Of a DNA stretch of 64,000 nucleotides, positions 12,113 through 37,925 are shown in pieces. The notes beneath the pieces are model-generated. The model saw nothing but the letters and a program-made list of their open reading frames with translations, made no database searches and was not told the origin of the DNA. The position numbers and the translations under genes are program-made. Within the stretch, counting starts at the first letter, position 1. Each line of letters starts with the position of its first letter. This DNA comes from a virus (taxonomy: Duplodnaviria; Caudoviricetes), in the IMG/VR virus record IMGVR_UViG_3300028603_000025, positions 34,936-98,935 of that record; one strand, 5' to 3'.

Positions 12113-13385
12113 GGAAATAGCGCAGGAAATCTCCAGATTCTATATGGAAACTTTCGGGGTGGAAATTAAACCGACCCGAAAGTTTGTCTTAGTTGGTAAA
12201 GGGATGATTGAACTCGAAAACAAAACGTTAAATGACGTAATTCAGCGACATTTCGAGTTCATCAAGGCCAGGAAAAATTGTCCTGTCTCATGGATGGCGA
12301 ATTACGGGGCCTCCTACGAAGATGCGTTAATCTATAGTGAATCCCCAAATGGATATAGGGTTTGTCTTAATTGTGGAGTGATTTATAAATCGGAGAACAA
12401 CAGGTCGGGCTGCTGCTCCGAGAAATGTAGAGCAGAAAGGAAGACGCATACGTTTGTTCCTGAATATAGAGCCAAGAAAAACGGAATACCTATTCAACAA
12501 GCTATCGACGAAGTAAATGCCATCATGGCAAAGAAGGATAGTAAATCGTCGAAGTATTTCGAGAGTAAAGGATTCAGTCCGGAAGAGGCCAAGAAACTTT
12601 CTTCCGAAACACAGGCGAAAAGGAGCAAACGCACCATTGAGTATTTTACTTCGCGGGGATGTTCTTACGAAGAAGCCGTGGAGGAAAGAGCAAAGTACCA
12701 AAAAGATAAAGCAGATATCAGGTCTGCTAAGTATACCAAAGAAGAGCTTAGGATAATGAATCCCTGGAGCGATGAATTTTGGATGAACAAGGGATACTCG
12801 TTAGCAGAGGCAAAGGAAATAAAGTCTGGGTTTTTTAAAAAAGGAGCTGATGCCTATCTCTCTTTGCCGAGAGGGGTGCGACTGTCGAACAACCATCTAC
12901 ATTATTCTTACTGGAAGAAAAGATTTCCTGATTCGTGGGAAGAGAAATACGCTGACCACATGAAGGAGATTTATCATAAATCAGGAAGAGGGGTGTCGTC
13001 GATAGCAAAGGAATTTTGTTATTCTTTGCATGGTAAATTTGACTTCTGTTCCAATGTGTACTATTATCCTGATGAATTTGGTAAGTTAATCAAGGAAAGC
13101 AAGAAGTACGTATTTTACGATTATGTTGATACGAGGAGAATGGTATGTGTAGAATTTAACGGAAACTGGTGGCATGCAAATCCGGAGACCTATTCCCCAG
13201 ATGATATTCTTATGGGAAAGACGGCTTCTGAAATCTGGAAAAGAGATGCAATCAAATTACAGACCATCGAAGATTTTGGATTTCGGACGTTCGTAGTCTG
13301 GGAAAAGGACTACAAGAAAAACAAAGAAGAAGTGATTCAAACCATTTACGAGGAGATTATTCTGCATGAAAATAGCAAAAATTGA
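12090..13385 (+). CDS. free-standing Vsr/DUF559-like (PD-(D/E)xK) homing endonuclease
   Basis: C-terminal YDYVD...VEFNGNWWH...RDAIK...GFRTFVVWEKD; Cys cluster CLNC...CCSEKC; repeated YFxSxG.S.EEA helices; lies between the two uvsX halves; start at ATG 12090 or 12096. Confidence 0.85.
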   Translation: MTMLLPSREIAQEISRFYMETFGVEIKPTRKFVLVGKGMIELENKTLNDVIQRHFEFIKARKNCPVSWMANYGASYEDALIYSESPNGYRVCLNCGVIYKSENNRSGCCSEKCRAERKTHTFVPEYRAKKNGIPIQQAIDEVNAIMAKKDSKSSKYFESKGFSPEEAKKLSSETQAKRSKRTIEYFTSRGCSYEEAVEERAKYQKDKADIRSAKYTKEELRIMNPWSDEFWMNKGYSLAEAKEIKSGFFKKGADAYLSLPRGVRLSNNHLHYSYWKKRFPDSWEEKYADHMKEIYHKSGRGVSSIAKEFCYSLHGKFDFCSNVYYYPDEFGKLIKESKKYVFYDYVDTRRMVCVEFNGNWWHANPETYSPDDILMGKTASEIWKRDAIKLQTIEDFGFRTFVVWEKDYKKNKEEVIQTIYEEIILHENSKN

Positions 13386-13470
13386 AAAGGTAGGTAAAAG
13401 AAAGGTTTATGATATATCAGTTAAGGAAGTGGAACATTACATTTTAGATAACGGGGTAGTGTCCCATAAC
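13366..13470 (+). mobile_element. split intein C-fragment (IntC) in UvsX
   Basis: Block F VYDISV and block G SHN, with Thr as the +1 residue; basic. Confidence 0.93.
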
Positions 13471-13842
13471 ACTTCTGTTCAATACAGCCCAAATTCGGTT
13501 TTCTTTGTCGGAAGAGAACAGGTTAAAGAAGGAACCCAGGTAGTCGGATACAAATTTAACCTTACGATAGAGAAATCCAGACGGGTGCGGGAGAAATCAA
13601 AACTACCAATTGAGGTATCATTTGAAGAAGGCATCAACAAATGGTCTTCCCTTCTGGATATCGCCCTTGAACTTGGTCTGGTAATCGCACCGACTAAAGG
13701 ATGGTATTCCCGGGTAATCGAAGGCGTGGTGGAAGAAAAGAAATGGCGGCGGAAGGATACAGATAATAACGATTTCTGGGATGTATTATTGGAGGACCCT
13801 GAATTTGAAGCAGGAATTAACAAACTGTATCGTTTAGAGTAA
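13366..13842 (+). CDS. uvsX: split-intein C-fragment (35 aa) fused to UvsX C-terminal part (123 aa)
   Basis: MKIAKIEKVGKRKVYDISV...NGVVSHN then TSVQYSPNSVFFVGREQ, EKSRRVREKS, GGI-like EGINKWS and PTKGWY; own GAGGAG RBS at 13350. Confidence 0.95.
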   Translation: MKIAKIEKVGKRKVYDISVKEVEHYILDNGVVSHNTSVQYSPNSVFFVGREQVKEGTQVVGYKFNLTIEKSRRVREKSKLPIEVSFEEGINKWSSLLDIALELGLVIAPTKGWYSRVIEGVVEEKKWRRKDTDNNDFWDVLLEDPEFEAGINKLYRLE

Positions 13843-17240: not shown

Positions 17241-20200
17241 TTGATTAAAGTAATCGTTAAGAGAGACGGTAGGAACGAGGAGTTTTTTCCTCATAAATTA
17301 AACGGATGGGGAGAATGGGCAGCAGATACGTTAGGTGAATATGTCGATTGGCAAGGGATAGTATTGACCACGGTATCCACTCTTCCCGAAACGTGTTCGA
17401 CTGATTTGTTGCAGGATAGATTAATAAAATCATGTTTGGATATAGGCACGTATTCGTACAATCGCATGGCAGGAAGACTCTATGCTGCACAATTGCGCAA
17501 ACGAATATTCCGAAACGGAATGCCTACCGTGAAAGAGTTGCACGAAAATCTTATCGAAAAAGGATACATGGTAAGGATGAAGTACTCGGATAATGAGTAT
17601 GATGAGATTGAAGGGATAATTAATCACGAACTGGATTACGATGCTACTCATTACGAATTACATCAAACGAGGTCAAAATACTCATTACAGAACCGCGTAA
17701 CCGGAGAAGAATTCGAGACACAGCAGTTCGTATATATGAGAATGGCTATGGCCTTGGCCGAAACTCAACCTCTAAACCGTAGAATGTACGATTTGAGAAA
17801 ATGGTACGAGCACCTTAGTAAAAAGAGGCTGAACGCCCCGACGCCAAACTATGTTAACTTGGGCACTTCTTTGAAGGGATATGCGTCATGCTGTCTATTC
17901 ACGACCGGGGATACCGCCAAGAGTATCGAAACAGGAGTTCATATTGCATATACCATGACCACCATGTCTGCTGGAATTGGTGCACATATGAATATACGCA
18001 GCCTGGGCGACGCGGTAAAGGGCGGTACGATCCAACACATGGGAAAGATACCTTATTTTAGATACCTTGTTTCGGCGGTCCATTCGTCTTTGCAGAACGG
18101 GAGAGGTGGTGCATGCACTACTTACTATCCTGCATTTGACCCAGAAGTCAAAGTGATTAGTCAGTTGAAAAATCCAATGTCCACCGAAGACAAAAAAATT
18201 CGTGGAATGGACTATTCGTTCGGGAGCAACAAGTTCTTTGCTCGTAAGGTAGCAAAGAACGAAGAAGTGTTCTTATTTAACGGATTCACGGCTCCTGATT
18301 TGTATGAGGCGATGTATTCTTCTGATACGGAATTGTTTGAGAAACTCTACGTTAAATATGAGAACGACGAGTCATTCAAAAAGGAATACGTGAATGCTCG
18401 CGATATAGTTACCACGGTTCTAAACGAGGGATATGAAACGGGAAGAACGTACCTCCATTTTCCCGATGAAATGAACAGGCATACCCCATTCAAGGACCCT
18501 ATTTATAGCTCAAATCTTTGCGTTGCTCCGGAAACCGAAGTCTTGACCAAAAACGGTTATGTTCCTATCATCGAACTATCCGGAAACGAAGTTGAAGTTT
18601 GGAATGGTGAAGAGTGGAGTTTGTCGAAGGTCGAAAAGACTGGAACAAATCAAAAATTGCTTAAGGTGACGACCTCTGCTGGGCAGGTAATAGAATGTAC
18701 ACCATATCATAAATTTTATGTGATAGACGATTACTGGAAATCTCCGCGCGAAGTTCGTGCGTATGAGTTGCAAGAGGGAGATAAACTGATTAAATTCAAT
18801 CTTCCTGTAATAGAAGGGGAAAGAAAGCTAGATAAAGCATATATAAATGGGTTTTATTGTGGAGATGGGTGCTTGACAAGTCAGGGACAACGTATCTACC
18901 TATATGGTGAGAAAAGAAATCTCCAAGGTTATTTTGAGACCGGAAGTAAATGGACCATCCAAGATGATTTGGATAGACAATATATTCACTTTAAAGATTT
19001 GAAAGATAAATTTTTTGTTCCCATGAACGATTATGATATAAATAGCCGACTTCAGTGGTTATCTGGGATACTTGATTCTGATGGGTGCGTCTATAGAAAT
19101 GGTACGAACGAACAACTCGTGATATGTTCTATAGAGAAAGAATTTCTTCGCGATATTCAAAAAATGCTACAAACTCTGGGAGTATCTGCAAAAATATCGT
19201 CTGTTTTGGAGGAGGGGTTTAGACTTCTTCCCGCTAACGATGGTAGTGGAGAAATGAAGAATTTTTGGTGCAAAAAATCATACCGCCTATTGATTACTAG
19301 CTGCGACGCTCATAAACTTTATCAACTTGGTTTACGAACACATCGTTTAAAAATAAACGATAGATTACCTCAACGAGACGCCAGACAATTCACCAAAATT
19401 ATAAGTGTCGTTGATGAAGGAAGATGCGATGACACATACTGTTTAAACGAACCGAAACGCCATATGGCAATGTTCAACGGAATTTTGACTGGACAGTGTG
19501 CGGAAATAAGTCTCCCGACTAAACCTTACCATAACATGCAAGACTTGTATTCAACCGAAGACCACGGAAAATCAGAAATCGGTCTGTGTTCTTTAGCCGG
19601 AGTCGTGGTATCCAATATCGAAAACGACGAACAGTATGAAGAAGTAATTTACTACGCCCTGTTGATGATTGATAAATGTATCCATATGTCTGATTACGTT
19701 CTTCCTCATCTTGAAGTTACGGCCAAGGGAAGGCTGTCCGCGGGAATAGGCGTAATAGGGCTGGCGCATTTGATGGCTAAGAACAAACTATTATACTCTT
19801 CCCAAGAAGGAAAAAACTTTATTCATGAGTTGTTTGAGAAGCACATGTACTATGCAATCAAAGCCTCCTTGAGACTTGGAAAAGAGCTCGGTAATGCTCC
19901 GTGGATGAATAAAACCAAGTGGGTAGACGGATGGATGCCTATTGACTCATATAACCGTAACGTGGATAAGATAGTAACCATTTCTAATCGGCTTGATTGG
20001 GAGTACCTTAGACATGAGGTCATGAGAAATGGAGGAATTCGTAATAGCGTTTTAGTTGCTCATATGCCTTCCGAGAGTTCGTCGAAAGCATCAGGAACGA
20101 CTAATGGAGTATATCCGGTAAGGGATTTGTCTTTGCTCAAAGGAGACAACACCACCATGACTTACTGGGCTGCTCCAGAAGGAGAAGCTCTCGGAGAATG

Positions 20201-20468
20201 GTACGAACGTGCCTGGGATATCGACACCAAGGATATGATTGATTGTTATGCCATAATGCAAAAATTTACCGACCAGGCTATCAGCGCCGATTTATACCGT
20301 AGACTCGTCGGAGATGATGTGGTTACCACTACAGAAATGTTGACAGATTATCTGTATATGGTTAAAATGGGAATGAAAACTCGTTATTACGTTAACAGCA
20401 AAACGTCTGATGGCGTAGAGTTGGATAATGGCGATGTCGGTTGCGCGGGCGGCGCATGCACACTTTAG
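17241..20468 (+). CDS. nrdA: class Ia ribonucleotide reductase alpha subunit containing an intein
   Basis: ATP-cone VKRDG, NAPTP, ASCC, RGGA, SNL|CAEI, LCSL, MPSESSS and C-terminal CAGGACTL. Confidence 0.97.
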   Translation: MIKVIVKRDGRNEEFFPHKLNGWGEWAADTLGEYVDWQGIVLTTVSTLPETCSTDLLQDRLIKSCLDIGTYSYNRMAGRLYAAQLRKRIFRNGMPTVKELHENLIEKGYMVRMKYSDNEYDEIEGIINHELDYDATHYELHQTRSKYSLQNRVTGEEFETQQFVYMRMAMALAETQPLNRRMYDLRKWYEHLSKKRLNAPTPNYVNLGTSLKGYASCCLFTTGDTAKSIETGVHIAYTMTTMSAGIGAHMNIRSLGDAVKGGTIQHMGKIPYFRYLVSAVHSSLQNGRGGACTTYYPAFDPEVKVISQLKNPMSTEDKKIRGMDYSFGSNKFFARKVAKNEEVFLFNGFTAPDLYEAMYSSDTELFEKLYVKYENDESFKKEYVNARDIVTTVLNEGYETGRTYLHFPDEMNRHTPFKDPIYSSNLCVAPETEVLTKNGYVPIIELSGNEVEVWNGEEWSLSKVEKTGTNQKLLKVTTSAGQVIECTPYHKFYVIDDYWKSPREVRAYELQEGDKLIKFNLPVIEGERKLDKAYINGFYCGDGCLTSQGQRIYLYGEKRNLQGYFETGSKWTIQDDLDRQYIHFKDLKDKFFVPMNDYDINSRLQWLSGILDSDGCVYRNGTNEQLVICSIEKEFLRDIQKMLQTLGVSAKISSVLEEGFRLLPANDGSGEMKNFWCKKSYRLLITSCDAHKLYQLGLRTHRLKINDRLPQRDARQFTKIISVVDEGRCDDTYCLNEPKRHMAMFNGILTGQCAEISLPTKPYHNMQDLYSTEDHGKSEIGLCSLAGVVVSNIENDEQYEEVIYYALLMIDKCIHMSDYVLPHLEVTAKGRLSAGIGVIGLAHLMAKNKLLYSSQEGKNFIHELFEKHMYYAIKASLRLGKELGNAPWMNKTKWVDGWMPIDSYNRNVDKIVTISNRLDWEYLRHEVMRNGGIRNSVLVAHMPSESSSKASGTTNGVYPVRDLSLLKGDNTTMTYWAAPEGEALGEWYERAWDIDTKDMIDCYAIMQKFTDQAISADLYRRLVGDDVVTTTEMLTDYLYMVKMGMKTRYYVNSKTSDGVELDNGDVGCAGGACTL
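18519..19496 (+). mobile_element. LAGLIDADG intein (326 aa) with C-terminal Gln, at the NrdA catalytic Cys
   Basis: CVAPETEVLT, CTPYHKF, GFYCGDG, WLSGILDSDG, DDTYC and FNGILTGQ|C. Confidence 0.95.
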
Positions 20469-20476
20469 GAGAAATC

Positions 20477-21586
20477 ATGGGAAAGGATATTCATAGCAAG
20501 GTCTTTAACACAAAGAAAACAGATTATAGAAACGTATCCCTGATTCTAGGGGAACAGGACGTGGGCCTGTTTGATACAGTGAATAAGCAGTATCCAGATA
20601 TCTGGAAGCTGTATAAGCAACAGAAAAGTCAAGATTGGGACGAGAACGAATTTGATTATTCCACTTGCAACGTCGAATTTAAATCATGTTCTCGGTCACA
20701 GTATGACATCATGATTAGAACGCTTGCGTGGCAATGGGAAGCCGACAGCGTAGCATCAAGAGCAATAGCTCCTATCCTTGCGCCATTTATCACATCTAGT
20801 GAATTATGGGCAGCGTGGCTGAAAGTTACTGAGATAGAGTGTTTACATTCGGCCACATATTCGGAGATTGTTCGGTGCAGCTTCGATAATCCAGAACACG
20901 TTCTTGGGGAGATTTTGTCGGTCAAAGAATCTCTGAGTAGACTGACCGGAATAACCAGAGTGTTCGCTCAGGCATACGAAACTTCCCATAAATATGCGCT
21001 TGGAATGGTGGGAAATAACCAAGAGACGTACAACGATGCATTCATGTGTATAGTTGGGCTGTTGATATTGGAGAGAATACAGTTCATGGCCTCGTTTAAT
21101 AGCACTTTCGCCATTTGTGATACCGGGATATTTCAGCCTATCGGAAAAGCTATTCAGAAGATTGCACAAGACGAGCTCGAGGTTCATGTTGCATTGGATA
21201 AAGCTGTATTGCGACACGAAATGACGACTCCCCGAGGAAAGATTGCATTTTCTCAAAACAGAGAAAGAATCAGGACATTAATCGACGAAGTCGTGGATAG
21301 TGAATTTGAATGGACTGATTATTTGTTCTCGGAAGGAAGAGAGCTTGTCGGAGCGAACGCAGAAACCGTGAAAAAATGGGTGATGTTCAATGCCAAAGAC
21401 GTGTATAATATGTTTGGAGTGGAATCGAAGTATCCCTTGCCGCAGACAAATCCTTGTAAATTTATGGAAAACTGGCTCGATATAAGCAAGACTCAACCTG
21501 CTCCCCAAGAACAGGACATAGGCCAATATCGAGTTGGTATCATGCGAAGGGATGACGAAAATAAACATTTTGACATAGACTTTTAA
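20477..21586 (+). CDS. nrdB: ribonucleotide reductase beta subunit
   Basis: WDENEF, QWEADS, ECLHSATY, LERIQFMASF, DELEVH and QPAPQE; ATG at 20477 with AGGAG RBS. Confidence 0.96.
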   Translation: MGKDIHSKVFNTKKTDYRNVSLILGEQDVGLFDTVNKQYPDIWKLYKQQKSQDWDENEFDYSTCNVEFKSCSRSQYDIMIRTLAWQWEADSVASRAIAPILAPFITSSELWAAWLKVTEIECLHSATYSEIVRCSFDNPEHVLGEILSVKESLSRLTGITRVFAQAYETSHKYALGMVGNNQETYNDAFMCIVGLLILERIQFMASFNSTFAICDTGIFQPIGKAIQKIAQDELEVHVALDKAVLRHEMTTPRGKIAFSQNRERIRTLIDEVVDSEFEWTDYLFSEGRELVGANAETVKKWVMFNAKDVYNMFGVESKYPLPQTNPCKFMENWLDISKTQPAPQEQDIGQYRVGIMRRDDENKHFDIDF

Positions 21587-27318: not shown

Positions 27319-28461
27319 ATGATTCTTAAAGCATTCAAATTCCGACTCTACCCAAACAAGACTCAAGAAGTTCTATTAAATAAGACGTTTGGTTGCGTCC
27401 GATTTGTTTGGAACCATAATGTTGAAGTATTTAATGATTGGTTTAATAATCCAGAAAGAAAGGCTTTGAGTGTGGCCGAATTGAGACAAGAATATGAATG
27501 GATGAAGGAAGTTAGTGCTTGTGCCGTAGAGTCAGCATCAAATAATTTCAGAGACTTCAAAACTCAATATTTCAATAAGAAACGTAAGAAGAAACTCGGA
27601 AGACCACAATTCAAGAATAGAAATTCGAGACAATCATTTAAACTCGATTATCGTAGATTCAGATTGGTAAACAATAGAATTCGTTTTGAAAAAATAGGTT
27701 TTATAAAAATCAATATAACAAGAGAAATTCATTCTGACGCAGAATTCCGCTCAGTAACCGTATCAAAGAATTCAGCAGGTCAGTATTTTGCCTCGATTCT
27801 CGTCAGAATGGAGATAAGTAATCCTATTCCCTTAACCGGAAACGTGACGGGGATTGATATGGGTTTGAATCATTTCTTGACGTTGAGTAACGGAGATAAA
27901 GTTTCAAACCCGAGATTTTTTCGCGAGAGCCAAGCGAAACTAAGAACAGCACAGAAACACTTGAGCCGGAAGAAGAAAGGTTCAAGTCGTTACAAGAAAC
28001 AGAAACTCAAAGTAGCAAGAATGCATCTCAAGATATCTAATCAGAGAAAGAACTTTCTTCACTCCGAGGCCAATAAAATCCTTAAGGATTATGATATAAT
28101 AGGAATTGAAGATTTGAACGTAGAAGGGATGAAAAAGAGTCATAATCTTGGAAAATCGATTTCTGACGCTTCCTTTTCTGAGTTCTTCAGGATTCTTTCT
28201 TATAAAGCTGAATGGAACAATAAAAAGGTCATTAAAATCAATAGGTTTTATCCTTCGAGTAAGACTTGTAGCCATTGTGGTTGGTATAATCCTGAATTAA
28301 AGAGAGGAAATAGAACTTTTGATTGTAAAGCTTGTGGAATCAGTTTAGATAGAGACCATAATGCTGCTTTGAATATTAAAGAACAAGCATTAGGCATGAC
28401 TAATGTTATACGAACGCAGAACGAACAGAAGACTTCTAGTTGTATTGGGAGCAGTTTGTGA
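27319..28461 (+). CDS. tnpB: TnpB RNA-guided endonuclease (IS200/IS605 family), with no tnpA nearby
   Basis: KAFKFRLYP..Q, FGCVRFVWN, RuvC motifs GIDMG, IEDL and DRDHNAA, and zinc finger CSHC..CKAC; catalytic triad intact. Confidence 0.95.
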   Translation: MILKAFKFRLYPNKTQEVLLNKTFGCVRFVWNHNVEVFNDWFNNPERKALSVAELRQEYEWMKEVSACAVESASNNFRDFKTQYFNKKRKKKLGRPQFKNRNSRQSFKLDYRRFRLVNNRIRFEKIGFIKINITREIHSDAEFRSVTVSKNSAGQYFASILVRMEISNPIPLTGNVTGIDMGLNHFLTLSNGDKVSNPRFFRESQAKLRTAQKHLSRKKKGSSRYKKQKLKVARMHLKISNQRKNFLHSEANKILKDYDIIGIEDLNVEGMKKSHNLGKSISDASFSEFFRILSYKAEWNNKKVIKINRFYPSSKTCSHCGWYNPELKRGNRTFDCKACGISLDRDHNAALNIKEQALGMTNVIRTQNEQKTSSCIGSSL

Positions 28462-29251: not shown

Positions 29252-30835
29252 ATGACGATTCTATTTAGCCAGCTCTTGGAAGAGTTGAACTCAGAAGAAA
29301 AGAAAGAAGTTGATACCTGGGAGAAAGGAGATAACTCCTTTTCTGACCACTTATTTAATCACAAAGATGACCATTCGATTGTTCTTCCTCTGAAACATCC
29401 TGAACAAGAAGGCCACAAGGACGAGATTAATTATCATCTTGAGCCTCATGGATATTCCATAAAAGACTATAAATCCGGAACCGCTATTGATAAACACGGA
29501 CGAGAAACTCGAATCGGAAAGGCTTTAAATGCAACCAAGGCCCCAGAAGACCTGAAGAATAAGTTTCAGAACGACCCTTCGCGGTCTCATAAAGAAACAG
29601 GCTCGGATGACCTAAGAGTAACTATAACCCGTCATCCTCATCATGTAGCTGGAATGACATCAGGAGGCCACTGCTGGGAAAATGAATCGTGTATGAGATT
29701 CTCCAGACTCCATGATGATACTAAAGACGAATACGAAAAGAAATTAACCAAAGATGCTTTACAATCTGACCTGAAACATGGAACGCACGTAGCCTATCTC
29801 CATCATAAGGACGACCACGAACTGAAACATCCCCTGGCCAGAATCGCCCTCAAGAAATTCTCTAATGAATCAGGAACAGAACATATCTTACGTCCCGAAG
29901 AAAGAACATACGGACCTGAATCAGATGCATTCCGTCATACTGTTCATTCTCATCTTGAAAAGCATATGCCGGTAAACGAATCTGAAGTCTATAAGAAACA
30001 CGAAAACGTATATGATGATGATAGACATAACGTCCGAATAGGAAACTCGAAAAAGGCTTTACGTAGATATATCGATAAGCTCGGAGAAAAAGGGCATTCA
30101 GAATCATCAAGAAAAATCATTCTTAATCATCCTGAATTCGACGACAAAACTGCAGACCAACTTCACGAAAAAGGCTATGGATACGTCATGGAAAGTCCGC
30201 GCCTGTCAAAAGAATATCTCGGTAAACAAGTTGACCGAGTAACAAATTACGAAATGCCCCATGACCCGTTAATCCATAATCCAAAACTGACGCCTGCGCA
30301 CATCCATAAGCTGTTGGATCATGGTGTACAGATGCATCCGGATTCTCCTGCTTTGAAGCCAGAGCATATCAAGAGGATAATTGATAAAGACGAGCGTGGA
30401 GGTCGAGAGACATCAGATTATATCCAACACCCAAATGCCAGTTATGATAACGTTAAGCATTTTATGGATACACATCCCGGATATAGGAGTAATGCTATTA
30501 GATTTAATAGTAAACTGAAAGGAGACCACCTTCATAAATTGGTTAAAGACGGGTATGCAGACGAAGGCGGCCCGGTAGCAAAGGCAATTCTATATCATAA
30601 GAACGTTCAGCCTAAGACCGTTGACCATTTACTCAATCATCCTGAAGCCAGAAAATCAATTATCGGGGACAATATTTCCAGCCTTGATTCACAGAATCCT
30701 GACGTAATCAGGACCATGTGGAAACACCAGAAGGAACATAACAAGAACGATGATAGCAGACTTAAAATTCTGAAGATAGGTTACCGGAACAAGAAAGGTC
30801 TTCCTGATGATATAAAGGACGAAGTACATAGCTAA
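29252..30835 (+). CDS. His/Lys/Asp-rich protein with C-terminal helical repeats, candidate internal head protein
   Basis: Paralog of 46998-48490; N-terminus MTILFSQLLEEL resembles a capsid-targeting leader; repeated (L/I)xxHP motifs. Confidence 0.6.
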   Translation: MTILFSQLLEELNSEEKKEVDTWEKGDNSFSDHLFNHKDDHSIVLPLKHPEQEGHKDEINYHLEPHGYSIKDYKSGTAIDKHGRETRIGKALNATKAPEDLKNKFQNDPSRSHKETGSDDLRVTITRHPHHVAGMTSGGHCWENESCMRFSRLHDDTKDEYEKKLTKDALQSDLKHGTHVAYLHHKDDHELKHPLARIALKKFSNESGTEHILRPEERTYGPESDAFRHTVHSHLEKHMPVNESEVYKKHENVYDDDRHNVRIGNSKKALRRYIDKLGEKGHSESSRKIILNHPEFDDKTADQLHEKGYGYVMESPRLSKEYLGKQVDRVTNYEMPHDPLIHNPKLTPAHIHKLLDHGVQMHPDSPALKPEHIKRIIDKDERGGRETSDYIQHPNASYDNVKHFMDTHPGYRSNAIRFNSKLKGDHLHKLVKDGYADEGGPVAKAILYHKNVQPKTVDHLLNHPEARKSIIGDNISSLDSQNPDVIRTMWKHQKEHNKNDDSRLKILKIGYRNKKGLPDDIKDEVHS

Positions 30836-31887
30836 TGTTTAATAGTAAGTTCTATATCGGAGTAGTAGAAAGCCGCGACGACCCGGAAAAGATGGGAAGA
30901 TGTAAGGTCAGAGTATTCGGTATTCATTCTGACTCAAAGATTCTTCTCCCAACCCGAGACCTACCTTGGGCGATTCCGTTACTTCCTACTACTTCTGCAT
31001 CTATATCAGGTCTAGGCATTTCCCCGACTGGAATCGTTCCCGGATCTTGGGTTCTTCTGATTATGTTGGACGGAGATGATTGCCAACAACCCATGATTCT
31101 TGGTTCGATTCTGTCCAAGTCAATGGATGCCAATTCAATAGTCCCAAGAAAAGAAGAACTGATTAATATCAATAACGGAATACTCAGAACCAACGACGGA
31201 GTAGAAGTAAAAGACTCAGATGGATTTCCGGTAAGATTCGGTATCCCGAAAAAGGAAGGATGGTATCTGGGAAAGACGTCAGAACAACATGAATCAGGAG
31301 GAAGAGGGCCGGGAGTAATTAATGATTACCTTGGAGGTTCGTCAGGAGATTACGGCGGAGCATCGTACGGCATGTTCCAGTTTGCTTCATATCTTCCTAC
31401 CAATAACAGACGGCCCGCGATAAAGAATTCCCCGGTAAAGGCATTCATTGCAAACAGCAAGTATAAAAGTAAGTTTGATGGAATGGAACCTGCCACCCGG
31501 GCATTCGATGATATGTGGAGACTGATAGCAAGTACGTATCCTGACTTTGAAGATGAGCAACGTGAATATATCAAACGTAAATATTATGACGTGGCCATGA
31601 GTAACATAATGCGATTTGGGATAGACCTTAGTAAATACGGACCAGGAGTTCAGGATTTAGTCTGGTCGACCGCAGTTCAGCTTGGTCCCAACAACACAGG
31701 AGTTTATAAGTTTCCGTTGGGAGGAAAAAGCGAACTGGACGATAAAAGCATCATTCAGTTAGTATCTGAATATAAAATAGCAAACGTAGGTAATCTGTTT
31801 CGGTCATCAAGCGAAATGATAAGGAATAATGTTCGGAATAGATGGAGACAAGAGGAGCAAGATTTAATCGCGTTAACGAACGGCTGA
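30835..31887 (+). CDS. gp5: baseplate hub gp5 (OB-fold plus lysozyme-like domain, no beta-helix)
   Basis: GVVESRDDPEKMGRCKVRVFGIH, LPWA and GSWV...DG..QQPMILG; then HESGGRGPG, GGASYGMFQFAS and WSTAVQLG, a muramidase-like domain. Confidence 0.88.
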   Translation: MFNSKFYIGVVESRDDPEKMGRCKVRVFGIHSDSKILLPTRDLPWAIPLLPTTSASISGLGISPTGIVPGSWVLLIMLDGDDCQQPMILGSILSKSMDANSIVPRKEELININNGILRTNDGVEVKDSDGFPVRFGIPKKEGWYLGKTSEQHESGGRGPGVINDYLGGSSGDYGGASYGMFQFASYLPTNNRRPAIKNSPVKAFIANSKYKSKFDGMEPATRAFDDMWRLIASTYPDFEDEQREYIKRKYYDVAMSNIMRFGIDLSKYGPGVQDLVWSTAVQLGPNNTGVYKFPLGGKSELDDKSIIQLVSEYKIANVGNLFRSSSEMIRNNVRNRWRQEEQDLIALTNG

Positions 31888-31918
31888 CACTCCCCCGCCT
31901 GAAGGAAGGGGATTTACG
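31885..31918 (-). mobile_element. IS200/IS605-type end hairpin remnant
   Basis: The minus strand reads aaatccccttccttcaggcgggggagtgtca, resembling tnpB-element ends; it overlaps the gp5 stop. Confidence 0.55.
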
Positions 31919-31921
31919 CTA

Positions 31922-32296
31922 TTATTTGTTAAAGTACTTTTCCATGTACTTAATCAACTTCTCAAGCTCTTCTTTCAGAAGCTTTCGTTTTATTTCCTCT
32001 ATACCATCACCGTCCAGGAAATACGGCAAGGATGATCCCGTGAACTGATATTCGTACTCAACCAAATCAATCGTGTCAATCTTCTTGAATATAATCGGGT
32101 GAGCCTTTATCCAGCAGTCAAATCGAAAACCTAAATGATTGGTCAACAGTTCATTCAAATCATCATTAACATATTCAATCTTCTGGGCCAAAATGAGTAA
32201 TTCTTTTCTTCCTCGGATGAGATATGTTTTATTTAGTTCAGACTCACTAAACCCGTATTCACTAAACCCGTATTCGATCAATTCTTCCGGTTTCAT
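31922..32296 (-). CDS. hypothetical protein (tandem duplicate A)
   Basis: MKPEELIEYGF...; near-identical to 32442-32813. Confidence 0.7.
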   Translation of the reverse strand: MKPEELIEYGFSEYGFSESELNKTYLIRGRKELLILAQKIEYVNDDLNELLTNHLGFRFDCWIKAHPIIFKKIDTIDLVEYEYQFTGSSLPYFLDGDGIEEIKRKLLKEELEKLIKYMEKYFNK

Positions 32297-32441
32297 CACG
32301 TGTGCCCTTTCATAAATAGATATGAGACAATTTAACATTCATTATATTCATGGCGGTCTGAATATTTCTATGTTTTAGTAATGAGTACTTCAAATCATCA
32401 ATTTTTGTGAATCCGTACGTGATTAACTTGTCTGTTCCTTG

Positions 32442-32813
32442 TTATCTTTCTATTCCTTTATTGAAGTACTTTTCCATGTACTTAATCATCTTCTCAAGCT
32501 CTTCTTTCAGAAGATTTCGTTTTATCATCGCTATACAATCTTCACCCGGGTGAAACGCAAAGAACGGTCCCGTGAACTGATATTCGTACTCAGACAAATC
32601 AATCGTGTCAATCTTCTTGAATATAATCGAGTGAGCCTTTATCCAGACGTCAAATCGAAAATCTAAATGATTGGTCAACAGTTCATTCAAATCATCATTA
32701 ACATATTCAATCTTCTGAGCCAAAAGGAGTAATTTTTTTCTTCCTCGGACGTTACAGGTTTTATCTAGTCCAAACTTACTAAACCCGTATTCAATCAATT
32801 CTTCCGGTTTCAT
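32442..32813 (-). CDS. hypothetical protein (tandem duplicate B)
   Basis: AAAGGA RBS; MKPEELIEYGF...; paralog of the previous gene. Confidence 0.7.
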   Translation of the reverse strand: MKPEELIEYGFSKFGLDKTCNVRGRKKLLLLAQKIEYVNDDLNELLTNHLDFRFDVWIKAHSIIFKKIDTIDLSEYEYQFTGPFFAFHPGEDCIAMIKRNLLKEELEKMIKYMEKYFNKGIER

Positions 32814-32866
32814 CGCGCGTGTCCTTTCATAAATAGATATGAGACAATTTAACATTCATTATATCT

Positions 32867-33142
32867 ATGGTCAAGTCATTTTTAATCATCTTATCATTAA
32901 CTACCTTATCATTAACTACCTTAACAGCATGTAAGACTGTTCCGGTAACTAAAGAATTCCCACGTGTTCCGGAAAAAATGCTTGAAGAACCCGAAACTCC
33001 AAGTATGATAACAGAACAAGATACGTTACTGTCTGATATGTTACCAGTAATCATTGATAACAATTCAGTCTGTACCAAGAACTATTATCTGTTAAAGGGC
33101 TGGCAAGCCTGGTATCACGAACAGAAGAAGCTGCACAAATAA
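32867..33142 (+). CDS. outer-membrane spanin (Rz1-like lipoprotein)
   Basis: Lipobox LTAC, Pro-rich FPRVPEKMLEEP, NNSVC...WQAWYHEQKK; CATAAATAG late promoter at 32828. Confidence 0.75.
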   Translation: MVKSFLIILSLTTLSLTTLTACKTVPVTKEFPRVPEKMLEEPETPSMITEQDTLLSDMLPVIIDNNSVCTKNYYLLKGWQAWYHEQKKLHK

Positions 33143-33165
33143 CTTAATTTATCTTTCTTACCCAT

Positions 33166-33193
33166 CCCGAATTCAAAGCGACTTCGGGTTTTC
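33166..33193 (+). terminator. rho-independent terminator
   Basis: cccgaa...ttcggg followed by TTTT. Confidence 0.6.
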
Positions 33194-33205
33194 TATTTTA
33201 CATAT

Positions 33206-34030
33206 ATGAATATCCAAATCAAAGGAACCGCTCCCGAATCACCTATCCTGACTTCTAACGGATACAAGGAGATTCAATCCCTATCTGAATCCGATAACGT
33301 CTGGAACGGAAGTGATTTTGTTCCGGTAAATGTCGAGAAATCTTCCGGGCCTGTAAAGTTACTAAAGGTAAAGACCGATAACGGATTTGAACAGGACTTT
33401 ACGGAAGACCAAGTCTGGTACGTGGTTGATGAACGTTCCACGGTAATCAAGACTAAAACAACCAAGGAACTCCGGATAGGCGACAAACTGATGGAAGTAT
33501 CCTACCCTGTCATTCAAGGGGAAAAGAAGATGCACAAAGCCTATATCAACGGGTATAACGGGGGAAAGCACTATTACAATTCAGGATGGTCGGTGCCAGG
33601 AGTGGTCTATGATATTGACACCCGGGTGAAATGGCTATCAGGAATCATTGATGCACGCGGTTCATTGTTCTCGTACAATACTTCAAGTATGCTTAAGATA
33701 AGCTGTTTGGATTATCAGTTCCTTCGAGAAATCCAGTTCATGTTGCATACGATAGGTATATCTTCTTCCCTGAAAGAAGCCGGATATGGAAAGGAATACA
33801 AACTGGTCCTGAATGACTATGCCTTGTTCCGGTTAAAACGAATCGGGGTTACTCCGTGCAGAATTAACTTGACTTCAGGAACCCGACCGATTAACATACT
33901 TGGAGTGCGTATATTATCTGTAGAAGATTCGGGAAGAAAGGATTCGGCCTATGCGATTGTCGATACCAAACTGGAAACCATGATATGCGGAGGAATATTA
34001 ACAGGAGTTCACGATGGCGAATACTGTTGA
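33206..34030 (+). CDS. free-standing Hint + LAGLIDADG protein, degenerate paralog of the NrdA intein
   Basis: Collinear with 18519-19496 (APE..LT.NGY, VWNG, VEK, KLLKV.T, GDKL, PVI.GE, KAYING, WLSGI.D, FLR.IQ.ML.T.G, GILTG), but with no exteins and no catalytic residues. Confidence 0.88.
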   Translation: MNIQIKGTAPESPILTSNGYKEIQSLSESDNVWNGSDFVPVNVEKSSGPVKLLKVKTDNGFEQDFTEDQVWYVVDERSTVIKTKTTKELRIGDKLMEVSYPVIQGEKKMHKAYINGYNGGKHYYNSGWSVPGVVYDIDTRVKWLSGIIDARGSLFSYNTSSMLKISCLDYQFLREIQFMLHTIGISSSLKEAGYGKEYKLVLNDYALFRLKRIGVTPCRINLTSGTRPINILGVRILSVEDSGRKDSAYAIVDTKLETMICGGILTGVHDGEYC

Positions 34031-34370
34031 GCAGGAAAAGACTTATAAGGAATTCATGATATTTTCGTTGCTTGGTAAACATGCCGACTACTGCGCAAAT
34101 CGAACAAGGATTATATATCTATTCGACGTATCATCAAGCAAAGACTCGAATATTCAGGAAATGGTTCAGTTTATCGACAGAGTCATAGGGTCACGAGGAG
34201 ATTTGGGAATGGTTAATCTATTTTCAATGGACAGAGATAAAGTTCTTGATTACGGGGGATTCCTGGTCGATGACTGGTTCGATAATATAAACCCGGTGGA
34301 TTTCATCAAGCTGAAGACGAACCGGAAGAAATGGATAGACGTGATTGTTAATTCAGGAATGGTATTATGA
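34014..34370 (+). CDS. hypothetical protein (paralog pair, A)
   Basis: Shares G.LVDDWF...NP...IKL.T.R..WI with 34367-34729. Confidence 0.7.
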   Translation: MANTVEQEKTYKEFMIFSLLGKHADYCANRTRIIYLFDVSSSKDSNIQEMVQFIDRVIGSRGDLGMVNLFSMDRDKVLDYGGFLVDDWFDNINPVDFIKLKTNRKKWIDVIVNSGMVL

Positions 34371-34729
34371 CGACCCCGGAACAAGAATATAACTACCTGC
34401 AGTATGTCACCAATATGATTATCGATTACTATCAGGATAATCGAAACATGTCTGGTGTGTACATGTCGGACATGGTTAATTCATCCTCCCCGGTATTTCA
34501 GGAAATATCCCAGTTTGTATATGAGTTATTCGGAAAGAGACATAATATCAGCTTGGTCTGTATGTACTCTGAAAAGTCAGGATTGCTTGTCGATGACTGG
34601 TTCGGTGCCCTGAATCCAATCTATATTATCAAGTTAAGAACCTGTAGGGAAAGATGGATATCCGCGATAAAAGATGAACTTCCGCATATTCGTGAAAAAA
34701 GACTTGACTGGAAGACCAGAAAGGGGTAG
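34367..34729 (+). CDS. hypothetical protein (paralog pair, B)
   Basis: ATGA overlap with the upstream paralog. Confidence 0.7.
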   Translation: MTTPEQEYNYLQYVTNMIIDYYQDNRNMSGVYMSDMVNSSSPVFQEISQFVYELFGKRHNISLVCMYSEKSGLLVDDWFGALNPIYIIKLRTCRERWISAIKDELPHIREKRLDWKTRKG

Positions 34730-34732
34730 AAT
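34704..34732 (+). promoter_or_regulatory. sigma70 early promoter
   Basis: TTGACT-17 nt-TAGAAT. Confidence 0.75.
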
Positions 34733-34769
34733 GCTTCTTATCGTGATGACAAACAGAAAGGAAATCAAA

Positions 34770-34994
34770 ATGAGAAGAACCAAAGAACGCATGCCCAAGC
34801 AACCCGACGGAACCAAATACAACTGGGGCTATAACGACGGACTCAATGCATCATCAATGAAAAATCCGATTCATAGAAACTGGAAAGGAAAAGATGGAAT
34901 CCTTCGTCACTTTGATGAAGCCTATGTAAACGGATACATCGCCGGATATGCTAAGAGTACAGGAACTGTTCTGACTGTGCTGATTCAGGATTGA
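34770..34994 (+). CDS. hypothetical early protein
   Basis: AAAGGA RBS and ATG at 34770; YNWGYNDG...AYVNGYIAGY. Confidence 0.7.
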   Translation: MRRTKERMPKQPDGTKYNWGYNDGLNASSMKNPIHRNWKGKDGILRHFDEAYVNGYIAGYAKSTGTVLTVLIQD

Positions 34995-35002
34995 TGTGAT
35001 GG

Positions 35003-35081
35003 TTGTCGATACCAAACTGGAAACAATGATATGCGGAGGAATATTAACAGGATGTTAAGATGACGAATACTGTTGAGCAGG
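35003..35081 (+). repeat. ~79-bp degenerate copy of 33957-34035
   Basis: ttgtcgataccaaactggaaac-atgatatgcggaggaatattaacagga...gaatactgttgagcagg is present at both sites. Confidence 0.9.
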
Positions 35082-35088
35082 TAAAATA

Positions 35089-35460
35089 ATGAGACAGGAA
35101 TCTGATTTCATAAATCATCTACGAGAAATTGGGTTTACCGTTGTTTCCGGGTTACCCGATCCCGAGAAAGATACGATTATCAGTTTGTACGCCGATATGA
35201 TCCCCAATATAGTAGAACACTACCGGCTCCATGATAAATTCCTCCTTCTATACGATCATTCCTTTGGGGGGTCGTATAGACGGTTGTTATATTATGAAAT
35301 CACTAAAGGTTTCTTGACACAACCTGCTGTATCATATATAACGGACGAAGACCCGATTCGAGTCATAAAGAATAAAATATTGTTCGGATATGTTCAAGAA
35401 TTAGGAAAGATATTGTTTCTTGAGTTGAAGAAAGAAATAAAGAAGAGAAAAATAAAATGA
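35089..35460 (+). CDS. hypothetical protein
   Basis: 123 aa ORF overlapping the next gene. Confidence 0.6.
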   Translation: MRQESDFINHLREIGFTVVSGLPDPEKDTIISLYADMIPNIVEHYRLHDKFLLLYDHSFGGSYRRLLYYEITKGFLTQPAVSYITDEDPIRVIKNKILFGYVQELGKILFLELKKEIKKRKIK

Positions 35461-35834
35461 AACCTATACCAGCAAAACTAATCGTGTCAGCAACAATCGA
35501 GGTCCGGGATAATCGAGACTTCTTAATTCTACAATGGAATGATAGGGAATGTCGTAAAGTATACCGGATTCTATATGATGAAGATACCGCGACAATAGAA
35601 CACTACACGTTTCATGGATACAGAGATGAATGTATGGAACTGGAAGAAGCGGCAAGAATCCTTAAGAACATGGCCGATTACTTACTGGTCGGATATTATC
35701 ATGTCACAGAATGCTACACCGAACCACACCTGCTGCCGATTGAACATTTGTTGAGGAAGAAAGATGATCGATGTTTTTTAAACGGCAACAACCCCAACAA
35801 AATAATACTTGACTCACTGGATGCTGCCGATTGA
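35457..35834 (+). CDS. hypothetical protein
   Basis: 125 aa ORF with ATGA overlap. Confidence 0.6.
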   Translation: MKPIPAKLIVSATIEVRDNRDFLILQWNDRECRKVYRILYDEDTATIEHYTFHGYRDECMELEEAARILKNMADYLLVGYYHVTECYTEPHLLPIEHLLRKKDDRCFLNGNNPNKIILDSLDAAD

Positions 35835-35857
35835 ACATTTGTTGAGGAAGAAAGATG
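35731..35857 (+). repeat. 36-bp perfect direct repeat
   Basis: tgctgccgattgaacatttgttgaggaagaaagatg at 35731-66 and 35822-57. Confidence 0.95.
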
Positions 35858-36039
35858 TTGCTGGTTCATAAGATTGAGTTGCGCCCAACACTAGAACAGG
35901 AGCAATTCTTGTTTCAGTCTGTAGGTGTGCGCCGTTTCACATATAACGCTTTACTGGCCCATTTTAAGCAGGACGGCGTGAATGTTGACTGCGTAAATAA
36001 GCCTAGGTTTTATTGAAAAACATAGATTTTTATGAACGG
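35855..36039 (+). pseudogene. internally deleted tnpB (IS607-like) remnant
   Basis: ORF 35855-36016 MLLVHKIELRPTLEQEQFLFQSVGVRRFTYNALL is a TnpB N-terminal HTH; it is followed by ...agatttttatgaacgg, like IS607 right ends. Confidence 0.75.
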
Positions 36040-36046
36040 TGAAGTT

Positions 36047-36151
36047 ATGAGTAAGATAAAAACTTTCTTAATCGATTTGATTATCACTGCTGTTTTTGCC
36101 ATAGTAGTCGTCCTGGTGCTGGATGCATCCGCCAAAATTTACGGAGATTAA
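36047..36151 (+). CDS. small membrane protein (34 aa)
   Basis: MSKIKTFLIDLIITAVFAIVVVLVLDASAKIYGD; below the ORF-track cutoff. Confidence 0.5.
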   Translation: MSKIKTFLIDLIITAVFAIVVVLVLDASAKIYGD

Positions 36152-36155
36152 AAAA

Positions 36156-37067
36156 ATGAGTATCATCAAACCAATGCTGGCATCAGACTACGACGAATCA
36201 AAATTGAAGTTTCCCTTAATCGTTCAACCAAAGATTGACGGAGTTCGTTCTCTTAATCAGAATGGAGTTCTTGTCGGGCGTTCATTAAAGAAGCATGCAA
36301 ATAAATACGTCGCGTCTTTGTTCTCGGGTCCTGAACTGGACGGATTGGATGGAGAAATCTGCGTAACCGGAAAAGTAACCTCCCAGGATGCATGCCGGGC
36401 AACTACTTCGGCCTTGAACAGCATAGAAGGAGAACCAAGGGTAACCTGGTGGATATTCGATTACATTACTCCGGAAACTGAAGGGCTACCTTATTCTGAA
36501 CGATATGAATTAGCACGCAAGAAAGTTCTGTCCTTGATAGGTGACTTTCCGAACATTGATATAATAGAAGCTGATGTTGTTAATTCCTTACCAGAACTAC
36601 TAGAATTCGATTCTAAGTGTCTTGATATCGGATTTGAAGGAACCATTATCCGGGACCCGAACAAGCCGCACAAACGAGGCCGTTCTACTGTTCGGGAAGG
36701 AGGACTATTAAGGATAAAACGTTTCATGGAAGAAGAAGCCGTGGTAGTTTACGTAAAGGAAGGAAAGCTCAATAATAACGAAGCAACCGAAAACGAACTG
36801 GGACTGACTTCTCGTTCTTCCCATAAGGAGAACATGATTCCAAACGGACAAGTCGGAACGATAGTCTGTATCGACACAAAGACCGGAAAGGAAATCAACG
36901 TATCTCCGGGAAGACTGACCGAACAAGAAAGGATTTACTATTGGTATAACCAAACTGAAATGATTGGAAAGACCATCAAATACAAGTTCTTTCCGAAAGG
37001 AATCAAGAATAAACCGAGATTTCCTACGTTCCAATCATTCAGGATGAGTTCTGATATCGGGAATTAA
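36156..37067 (+). CDS. minimal ATP-dependent DNA ligase
   Basis: KPMLA, QPKIDGVR (motif I), LDGEI, FEGTIIR, LLRIKRF and PRFPTF; GGAG RBS. Confidence 0.95.
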   Translation: MSIIKPMLASDYDESKLKFPLIVQPKIDGVRSLNQNGVLVGRSLKKHANKYVASLFSGPELDGLDGEICVTGKVTSQDACRATTSALNSIEGEPRVTWWIFDYITPETEGLPYSERYELARKKVLSLIGDFPNIDIIEADVVNSLPELLEFDSKCLDIGFEGTIIRDPNKPHKRGRSTVREGGLLRIKRFMEEEAVVVYVKEGKLNNNEATENELGLTSRSSHKENMIPNGQVGTIVCIDTKTGKEINVSPGRLTEQERIYYWYNQTEMIGKTIKYKFFPKGIKNKPRFPTFQSFRMSSDIGN

Positions 37068-37069
37068 AA

Positions 37070-37435
37070 ATGACGTTGTTAATCACCTTGCATACCGCAC
37101 GAAAGCTCGATGCTTATAAAAACTCAAAAATTTTATCATCGATTATAGAACCTCTTGAGTGGAAAGATTACGCATGTATTTACGTAGGAAAGAATAATTC
37201 CCCGAACAGAAAATTCTTCCTCAAGAAATTACGTCATAGAATAAGCCAGGAAATTACGTTTAATCTTTGCCAAGAAGAGGATGGAGTACTCTCGAGAACT
37301 AAATTATCGGCATTTCTTAGTTCTCCAGAACTTCAAGAAAAGGCAATGACAGACTTCGACGACATCACCAAAGAAATTGAGTTAAAAGGATTCAGATACT
37401 ATGATAAATATGACACTGCTGACCGTAAAGAATAA
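37070..37435 (+). CDS. hypothetical protein
   Basis: 121 aa ORF in a co-directional cluster. Confidence 0.6.
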   Translation: MTLLITLHTARKLDAYKNSKILSSIIEPLEWKDYACIYVGKNNSPNRKFFLKKLRHRISQEITFNLCQEEDGVLSRTKLSAFLSSPELQEKAMTDFDDITKEIELKGFRYYDKYDTADRKE

Positions 37436-37925
37436 GTTTTATTCTGAGCTGAACAGACGTGGAATTAAGACGGGGAATGATTTTCGACGACATAATCTGC
37501 GAGCCTATCTTGATATTTGCGGAGCACCTTCTTTTATCAAGAAGAACGATCTAGTAGAAGAATATCCGTTTATAATGTCATCGTGTAGAAAGTCTTTTTT
37601 ATACGAATCCTATCTGATATTTTCTCTGACCCCGGTCACTATTTCTCCAGACGGAACGATAGAATGGAAACAAATTGCTCTTGAATTTGAGCCCGAAGGT
37701 AATAGTTTAACCGATAAACCATATCGGGAAAGGATTGATGATATCATAGACCGAATGGTGTATAAGATGTACGTAAAAGAGCTTGTCAAACTGAAGGAAT
37801 GTGGTATAATGATGGTTAAGGAGTTGTTTGAAAGTAAGGACGAGAACGGAGTTCCTATTTATTATCACACGGAGGAACCAAATGAGAAAGTTAGTGCTGG
37901 AACGATTCAAGAAACATTTCGATGA
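37401..37925 (+). CDS. hypothetical protein (family with 38774-39304)
   Basis: C-terminal Y.KEL...F.SKDENG.P.YY shared with 38774-39304. Confidence 0.65.
   Translation: MINMTLLTVKNKFYSELNRRGIKTGNDFRRHNLRAYLDICGAPSFIKKNDLVEEYPFIMSSCRKSFLYESYLIFSLTPVTISPDGTIEWKQIALEFEPEGNSLTDKPYRERIDDIIDRMVYKMYVKELVKLKECGIMMVKELFESKDENGVPIYYHTEEPNEKVSAGTIQETFR

Follow-up and report, generated by a model that had tools for sequence, protein, structure and literature searches.

A free-standing and apparently inactive NrdA intein homolog in a putative T4-like phage, possibly retained by selection

Inteins are usually seen as pure parasites that are kept by clean splicing and homing, and the textbook homing cycle ends with decay and precise intein loss. 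Here, we describe what appears to be the reverse of that end point, in which the dead intein persisted while the essential gene that had hosted it disappeared. The element is an open reading frame (ORF) of 274 amino acids plus stop (33206..34030, plus strand; protein P0001, hereafter the orphan), identified by homology in a 64,000-nucleotide stretch of viral DNA (hereafter the window), which forms the last 64 kb of the 98.9-kb IMG/VR viral contig IMGVR_UViG_3300028603_000025 (completeness estimate, 59%). The orphan very probably descends from an intein embedded in NrdA, the large subunit of a class I ribonucleotide reductase (RNR), of a type still found in a related phage, the flanking exteins having been lost in place. 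We put the probability that it is now a selected gene at roughly 60%, and domestication is plausible on limited data. The ancestral locus can be traced in the related phage, and the orphan carries a first sign of purifying selection.

As proposed in the first-pass annotation, the ORF is an intein homolog lacking a host protein. Residues 9 to 267 aligned by BLASTP with the intein of the resident NrdA of the window (17241-20468) at 31% identity (E 4e-38), an end-to-end alignment that leaves about seven residues on each side, and all of the catalytic changes named in that annotation were present on re-alignment. At intein position 1, where a Cys, Ser, or Thr nucleophile is required, the orphan has Gly7 in place of Cys1 (CVAPE to GTAPE), with Thr8 aligned to position 2. 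Block B reads TEDQ, compared to TPYH in the resident intein and TEYH in P0003, an 829-residue NrdA encoded on contig L013, and 97% of the aligned family has His at this position. Block F reads DSAYA rather than the DDTYC of the resident intein, and the C-terminal end (GILTG-VHDGEYC-stop) has neither the terminal Asn or Gln nor the +1 nucleophile seen in P0003 (GN/C, the slash marking the splice junction) and the resident intein (GQ/C). Nor is the orphan an in-frame insertion in a host protein, such that four of five features of a functional class 1 intein are missing.

The endonuclease domain is similarly degenerate. The only Pfam match was to the LAGLIDADG_3 family profile (PF14528; residues 141-198; 25.9 bits vs. 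a cut-off of 22.5). The first LAGLIDADG motif reads GYNGGKH, with Lys, compared to GFYCGDG in the resident intein, and is followed by two gaps of 11 and 31 missing residues; the second reads GIIDARG, with Arg, compared to GILDSDG. The acidic metal-binding residue is thus absent from both LAGLIDADG helices, and two of three features of a LAGLIDADG nuclease are missing, the other being the two-half-domain DNA saddle, of which only helix 112-122 of the first half is found in the structural model described below, along with a complete second half. Without Cys1, the block B His, the terminal Asn, and the +1 Cys, the orphan is predicted to be unable to splice, and with Lys and Arg at both LAGLIDADG acidic positions and a single half-domain, it is not expected to cleave DNA. 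An active Thr-initiated intein was ruled out by the missing block B His, terminal Asn, and +1 nucleophile. Two of the changed catalytic positions are junction positions that may have been lost along with the exteins, and the block B His to Gln replacement appears to be the only clearly independent catalytic loss.

To place the orphan among its relatives, an exhaustive HMMER search of 1.84 billion representative proteins was performed, which returned 728 matches, almost all of them RNR-embedded inteins at 25 to 40% identity. The best match was P0003, with residues 8 to 267 of the orphan aligning in one stretch at 53% identity (E 3e-82). The 262-residue intein of P0003 retains Cys1 (SNL/CAAPET), block B (TEYH), block F (DSTYC), and its C-terminal end (GVITGN/CAEIAL), while its LAGLIDADG motifs are already degenerate (GYNTGKY and GILDARG). 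All indels of the orphan relative to full-length inteins are common to the P0003 intein and not to the resident intein, relative to which 42 residues are missing. The dead, halved endonuclease domain and the in-frame indels therefore appear to be ancestral and to predate loss of the host gene. Since both are common to a splicing-competent intein, they are uninformative on later selection, and the earlier argument that an open frame persisting despite divergence, indels, and dead LAGLIDADG motifs implies selection on the fold falls away for the most part.

Contig L013, which is 21 kb in length and carries P0003, is syntenic with the window. Its gene order comprises a 339-residue gene, a gp5-like gene, a lipoprotein-like gene, nrdB, orf117, an RCC1 gene, nrdA with its intein, small ORFs, and a DNA ligase gene. 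Counterparts in the window were found for the 339-residue gene (29252-30835; 45%), the gp5-like gene (a gp5 OB/VgrG3-like lysozyme gene at 30835..31887, plus strand; 79% to L013 1014-2066), the lipoprotein-like gene (32867..33142, plus strand; 61% to L013 4161-4424), and the ATP-dependent DNA ligase gene (36123..37067, plus strand; 58% to L013 11099-12019), with weak similarity among the small ORFs. The lipoprotein-like gene anchors the synteny on the left and the ligase gene on the right, with the gp5-like gene as a further anchor. In contrast, nrdB, orf117, and the RCC1 gene have no counterpart, and from nrdA only the intein part is represented, at 33206-34030 (52 to 53%), such that the intein-only ORF comes directly after the lipoprotein gene. 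No remnant of the L013 NrdA exteins, NrdB, orf117, or RCC1 was detected by tblastn within 31800-36200. Given that the intein-bearing nrdA of L013 occupies the syntenic slot, the exteins of the orphan were in all likelihood lost in place. The window does hold a second nrdA-nrdB pair (17241-21586). For the large subunit of this pair, the best BLASTP alignment with P0003 shows 33% identity, and for its nrdB, no match to the L013 gene was detected. On the simplest reading, the old RNR operon would have become redundant beside this second pair and then been deleted in place.

The first-pass annotation had taken the orphan for a copy of the NrdA intein of this genome, which the comparison with L013 contradicts. 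The resident intein (326 residues; 18519..19496, plus strand) is full length, with its splicing and LAGLIDADG residues and its endonuclease domain intact. That the orphan was duplicated from it and then decayed or was domesticated would account for the end-to-end alignment and the common NrdA insertion site; however, the 31% identity between them is no more than that to NrdA inteins of unrelated Vibrio phages, compared to 53% for the L013 intein, which also has the same indels and lies at the syntenic locus. A recent duplication was ruled out by these identities, and a diverged duplicate of any age is very improbable. The orphan thus evidently belongs to a different NrdA intein lineage than the resident intein. 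It resembles the mini-type intein of P0003, inserted at the SNL/C active-site position, in length, indels, the motifs GYN.GK. and GI[IL]DARG, and genomic slot, and differs from it in having no exteins and none of the Cys1, block B His, terminal Asn, and +1 Cys that the P0003 intein retains inside a full NrdA. Separately, the resident intein ends in Gly-Gln rather than His-Asn (GILTGQ/C) and would be an unusual C-terminal Gln intein for a phage.

These comparisons suggest an ancestor in which an nrdB...nrdA operon was flanked by the lipoprotein and gp5-like genes on one side and by the ligase gene on the other, and whose nrdA would have held a class 1 intein at the SNL/C active-site position with its LAGLIDADG endonuclease already dead and shortened. 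Once this operon was deleted, all that would have remained is the coding sequence of the intein, provided with a start codon and flanked by about seven residues at either end. The seven-residue leader, MNIQIKG (33206..33226, plus strand), was delimited by junction alignments, with Gly7 aligned to intein Cys1, and could represent what is left of either the N-extein or the beginning of nrdA. As candidate sources, the last N-extein residues (NLDIKA), the nrdA start (MKKQQL), and an ATA to ATG change were aligned, over stretches too short to trust, and likewise a comparison of HDGEY in the tail with HSSDEY in the C-extein is too short to decide its origin. This tail (VHDGEYC plus stop; 34007..34030, plus strand) is variable in the junction alignments and runs past the ATG (34014) with which the next ORF opens. 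Between leader and tail, the plus strand encodes an N-terminal Hint part (33227..33517; codons 8-104; 55% identity to the L013 intein) with block A (TAPESPILT) and the block B that has lost its His (TEDQ), a LAGLIDADG remnant (33518..33889; codons 105-228; 57% identity), delimited by predicted secondary structure and the Pfam match, that comprises helix 1 only (GYNGGKH) and one complete half-domain (GIIDARG), and a C-terminal Hint part (33890..34006; codons 229-267; 38.5% identity), which is the most diverged and has degenerate blocks F and G (DSAYAIVDT...GILTG).

Whether the orphan has been maintained since it became free-standing was assessed from other assemblies. An identical 274-residue protein is encoded on an 18.7-kb ENA contig (99.9% nucleotide identity) and on a Logan contig (100%), and a JGI contig matches without difference across the 625 nucleotides covered, equivalent to 208 residues. 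With at least three other assemblies in agreement, the common allele is the one with the open frame. One diverged comparator was found, a 4.6-kb Logan contig from SRR29050540 (L012; 97% nucleotide identity) in which the free-standing boundaries are the same. The ratio of nonsynonymous to synonymous rates (dN/dS, omega), a check that the first-pass annotation had called for, was 0.16 between the two over codons 1 to 268 (9 synonymous and 5 nonsynonymous changes; dS 0.051, dN 0.008), a synonymous excess with P 0.001 under equal rates and P 0.007 with a kappa of 6. Against the same contig, omega was 0.32 for the ligase gene, 1.96 for a nearby fragment of a TnpB transposase gene, and 0.66 to 1.9 for small neighboring ORFs.

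A relative-rate comparison, in which unique departures were counted against the consensus of 32 embedded inteins, located where the orphan has changed. Overall, it had accumulated 30 unique departures compared to 15 in the P0003 intein (P 0.025), and the difference lay in the Hint parts (23 vs. 9) and not in the LAGLIDADG remnant (7 vs. 6). Similarly, strongly conserved columns were retained by the orphan at 26 of 40 positions in the N-terminal Hint part, 27 of 43 in the remnant, and 9 of 19 in the C-terminal Hint part, with corresponding values of 32 of 40, 29 of 46, and 13 of 18 for the embedded relative. Since the extra divergence falls in the Hint parts alone, constraint appears to have been relaxed on the splicing blocks and not on the rest, a pattern that would fit a protein freed from splicing yet still needing its fold or a binding function. 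On a rough estimate, it would take ~0.1 neutral substitutions per site to produce the excess of lost conserved Hint positions, and with 4 to 5% of random substitutions creating stops, several would be expected across the ORF, where none is present. Taken together, there is thin evidence for purifying selection on the orphan in its free-standing state.

Several observations weigh against a selected gene. The selection signal comes from one diverged comparator and 14 substitutions, and in that comparator a 1-nucleotide deletion in a run of five G (33560..33564, plus strand) splits the ORF and codon 269 reads TAA, although the run is intact in contigs L014-L017. No promoter was found near the ORF by a promoter/terminator scan or by a search for the late-promoter motif TATAAATA. 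Just upstream lies a hairpin plus T-run, and no Shine-Dalgarno motif is evident. This weak hairpin (33166..33200, plus strand; -9.3 kcal/mol, z -1.7), in the interval between the lipoprotein gene and the ORF, is a possible terminator that was not called by the pattern scan. The region is also plastic, with repeats, tandem paralogs, and the TnpB fragment, and relics are expected in such places. Furthermore, no free-standing ortholog was found by a word-based search of proteins of 150 to 480 residues, by a peptide scan of IMG/VR with P0001, or by a scan of IMG/VR with the alignment of P0001 and the L013 intein, in which all 73 loci lay in ORFs of at least 588 residues (22 to 46% identity). A scan of JGI metagenomes recovered the single contig identical over the part of the ORF covered and no other free-standing ortholog.

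The same observations could be explained by a neutral relic, that is, an open but functionless pseudogene in which the intein stretch is the not-yet-deleted part of a dead nrdA. The missing host gene and splicing residues, the frameshift and earlier stop in the close relative, the upstream hairpin with no Shine-Dalgarno motif, and the setting of TnpB fragment, repeats, and duplicated small ORFs are all consistent with this, and the published precedent, the Arth_1007 intein, was read as a pseudogene (PMC3196547). However, an omega of 0.16 with a significant synonymous excess contrasts with values of 0.7 to 1.9 for the TnpB fragment and several small ORFs, and of the nine synonymous changes, eight are found past the L012 frameshift and remain synonymous when read in the original frame. 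Frame-breaking indels in L012 also affect its DNA ligase gene and two other ORFs and are mostly changes in the length of short mono- or dinucleotide runs, hence we suspect assembly errors rather than real gene loss. In the ligase gene, the break is a 1-nucleotide insertion equivalent to position 36601 of the window. Acceleration confined to the splicing blocks and deletions that ended within about seven codons of both intein ends also argue against a relic, which we consider unlikely, though a serious contender. The missing ribosome-binding site, raised as a caveat in the first-pass annotation, holds as an observation and is uninformative, since 29 of the 65 long ORFs in the window (45%), PolB and helicase among them, also have no Shine-Dalgarno-like motif; it was accordingly dropped as an argument against a gene.

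The predicted structure is consistent with retention of a fold. Structure prediction, also proposed in the first-pass annotation, gave a confident model: AlphaFold2 (AF2) with a 34-sequence alignment returned a mean predicted local distance difference test score (pLDDT) of 92.3 and a predicted template modeling score (pTM) of 0.90. In this model, residues 8-104 and 229-267 form the Hint beta-fold of a class 1 intein, which encloses LAGLIDADG helix 1 (112-122), a short loop, and one alpha-beta-beta-alpha-beta-beta-alpha half-domain (137-212). The best PDB matches of the model by Foldseek were the endonuclease-bearing inteins TliVMA, PhoVMA, PI-PfuI, and PI-SceI. The orphan is thus confidently modeled as a Hint domain plus one LAGLIDADG half-domain. 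The LAGLIDADG remnant has an isoelectric point of 9.6, compared to 4.7 for the Hint parts, and is the best-conserved part relative to P0003 (57%, vs. 38.5% for the C-terminal Hint part).

Under the selected-gene reading, the orphan protein would have neither splicing nor DNA-cutting activity left, and its Hint plus half-LAGLIDADG fold would have been retained under purifying selection after it became free-standing. As a noncatalytic binding protein, the excised intein may have been useful in its own right, whether before it became free-standing or only afterwards. If so, the likeliest binding part would be the conserved, basic LAGLIDADG-derived half-domain, with nucleic acid as its target, in the manner of other inactive LAGLIDADG proteins. 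Such a product is favored over a relic, though this function is weakly suggested, and nucleic acid binding in particular is doubtful; that the binding role is read only from charge and conservation counts against it. Another reading, along lines proposed in the first-pass annotation, is that the orphan acts in trans on the live inteins of the genome (in NrdA, UvsX, and a phosphoesterase), as a splicing modulator or as a shield of the homing site against a competitor endonuclease. The genome does hold several inteins, and the orphan retains a Hint fold and a basic half-domain; however, the embedded ancestor already had a degenerate endonuclease domain and had probably ceased to recognize the nrdA site, and the resident nrdA site already holds an intein. 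We consider such a role highly improbable.

Inactive LAGLIDADG proteins used as binders include the WhiA regulators and intron maturases, which have two half-domains and extra domains. They are like the orphan in having a LAGLIDADG-derived fold without the metal-binding acidic residues and may serve as a model for a binding-only protein, although they have no sequence relationship to it beyond the fold and offer a lead only. Active LAGLIDADG nucleases with an added zinc-finger DNA-binding domain are found in yeast HO and the WHO elements. Both are extein-less intein-derived genes (Coughlan et al. 2020, PMC7282813), and like the orphan, they represent a Hint plus LAGLIDADG gene that persists outside its original host protein. 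The orphan differs from them in that its nuclease domain is dead and halved and no further domain has been added. If confirmed, the orphan would parallel HO domestication in a phage, although without nuclease activity, would indicate that a virus can benefit from a function of an intein after its excision, and might provide a natural, well-folded Hint plus half-LAGLIDADG scaffold for partner searches.

Contrary to the earlier statement that no such case was known in phage, an intein of phage origin provides a published precedent, and it was the only one returned by a full-text literature search for free-standing, stand-alone, or orphan inteins. This is the Arth_1007 intein, of class 3 and DnaB type, carried in the genome of the bacterium Arthrobacter sp. 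FB24. Its exteins total 66 amino acids, and the block B His and Cys F:4 are missing; it proved unable to splice and was taken for a pseudogene (Tori and Perler 2011, PMC3196547). The orphan is of the same kind, namely a phage-origin intein homolog with vestigial exteins that has lost the block B His and another catalytic residue, and is likewise missing essential splicing residues. The authors mutated Asp123 and Asp219 of the endonuclease active site of Arth_1007 to block nuclease activity (PMC3196547), indicating that these acidic residues were still present there, whereas those of the orphan are already Lys and Arg. The orphan further differs in its exteins of about seven residues each, in having an identified ancestral host gene and locus, and in its dN/dS sign of constraint.

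Free-standing orthologs of the orphan were limited to L012 and the identical copies, with no further ones in IMG/VR, JGI, or the protein searches, and the free-standing state is rare in the family (0 of 73 IMG/VR loci). Word-based searches of longer proteins returned only NrdA inteins at 27 to 31% identity, a mode of search that missed P0003 itself, and tblastn against INPHARED returned only NrdA-embedded inteins, the best rows at 31 to 36% identity and all below 60%. No related phage was found in IMG/VR using the gp5-like protein, alone or as an alignment, and a homolog search with the lipoprotein returned a self-match only. Another free-standing homolog of NrdA-type inteins, independent of the orphan (P0096; 29% to P0001), was observed at positions 6001-6744 of L020, a 57.5-kb contig from JGI 3300002026, with no RNR gene within 6 kb. 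It holds ...TAPETLVLT near its start, ends GVLCGARRL, and retains Glu in the second LAGLIDADG motif (GVIDAEG), and its reading frame is open upstream through ...THTYTAPETLVLT. Tentatively, a spliced-out intein may have a phage role of its own, for example, in binding nucleic acid or protein, which preserved it when the redundant host gene was deleted; together with the L020 orphan, this would point to a general route of viral intein domestication, a possibility we rate below even odds.

The source phage appears from its genes to be a distant T4-like phage. PolB of the window is gp43-type, with no more than 36% identity to cyanomyovirus polymerases, and further T4-like markers include UvsX, a T4 neck protein, and the gp5-like hub lysozyme.

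Around the orphan, an 83-nucleotide direct repeat was identified on the plus strand. Copy 1 (33957..34039) comprises the last 19 codons of the orphan and the first nine codons of ORF 34014-34370, and copy 2 (35003..35085; 92% identical) reads ...GILTGC, a stop, and a truncated nine-codon start of the next gene, with five of the seven differences between them grouped at the stop/start junction. The copies bracket the small ORFs 34014-34370, 34367-34729, and 34674-34994, and L012 has a single copy of the repeat and ~1 kb less DNA there. ORFs 34014-34370 and 34367-34729 are paralogous to each other (33% identity, E 6e-18), the stop codon of the first overlapping the start codon of the second, and both have weak similarity to small ORFs downstream of L013 nrdA. 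The TnpB fragment is a 53-residue N-terminal part of a TnpB/OrfB_IS605 transposase (35855-36016), adjoined by a perfect 36-nucleotide direct repeat (35731-35766 and 35822-35857), with a full-length, 380-residue TnpB 8 kb upstream (27319-28461); against L012, the fragment has one synonymous and seven nonsynonymous changes, as a pseudogene would show. In the same comparison with L012, the small ORFs 37401-37925 (3 synonymous and 21 nonsynonymous changes) and 35457-35834 (2 and 11) gave omega values of 1.5 to 1.9, which points to relaxed or diversifying selection on both.

Between the gp5-like and lipoprotein genes, two tandem paralogs lie on the minus strand (31922-32338 and 32442-32855), with 75% amino acid identity and 87 to 94% nucleotide identity over 350 nucleotides. 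L014 and L012 differ mainly at these paralogs, including a 15-nucleotide insertion and 2-nucleotide deletions, which suggests recombination between the copies. Elsewhere in the window, the UvsX/RecA gene (11204-13842) is spread over three reading frames, of which frame 1 (11204-12112) encodes the N-terminal parts of RecA and of a Hint domain, frame 2 (12003-13385) a 460-residue ORF with a weak restriction-endonuclease-like match, and frame 3 (13366-13842) an intein C-terminal motif and the UvsX C-domain. The gene has the appearance of a fractured one, with its intein split in two around an endonuclease ORF (compare PMC2677866).

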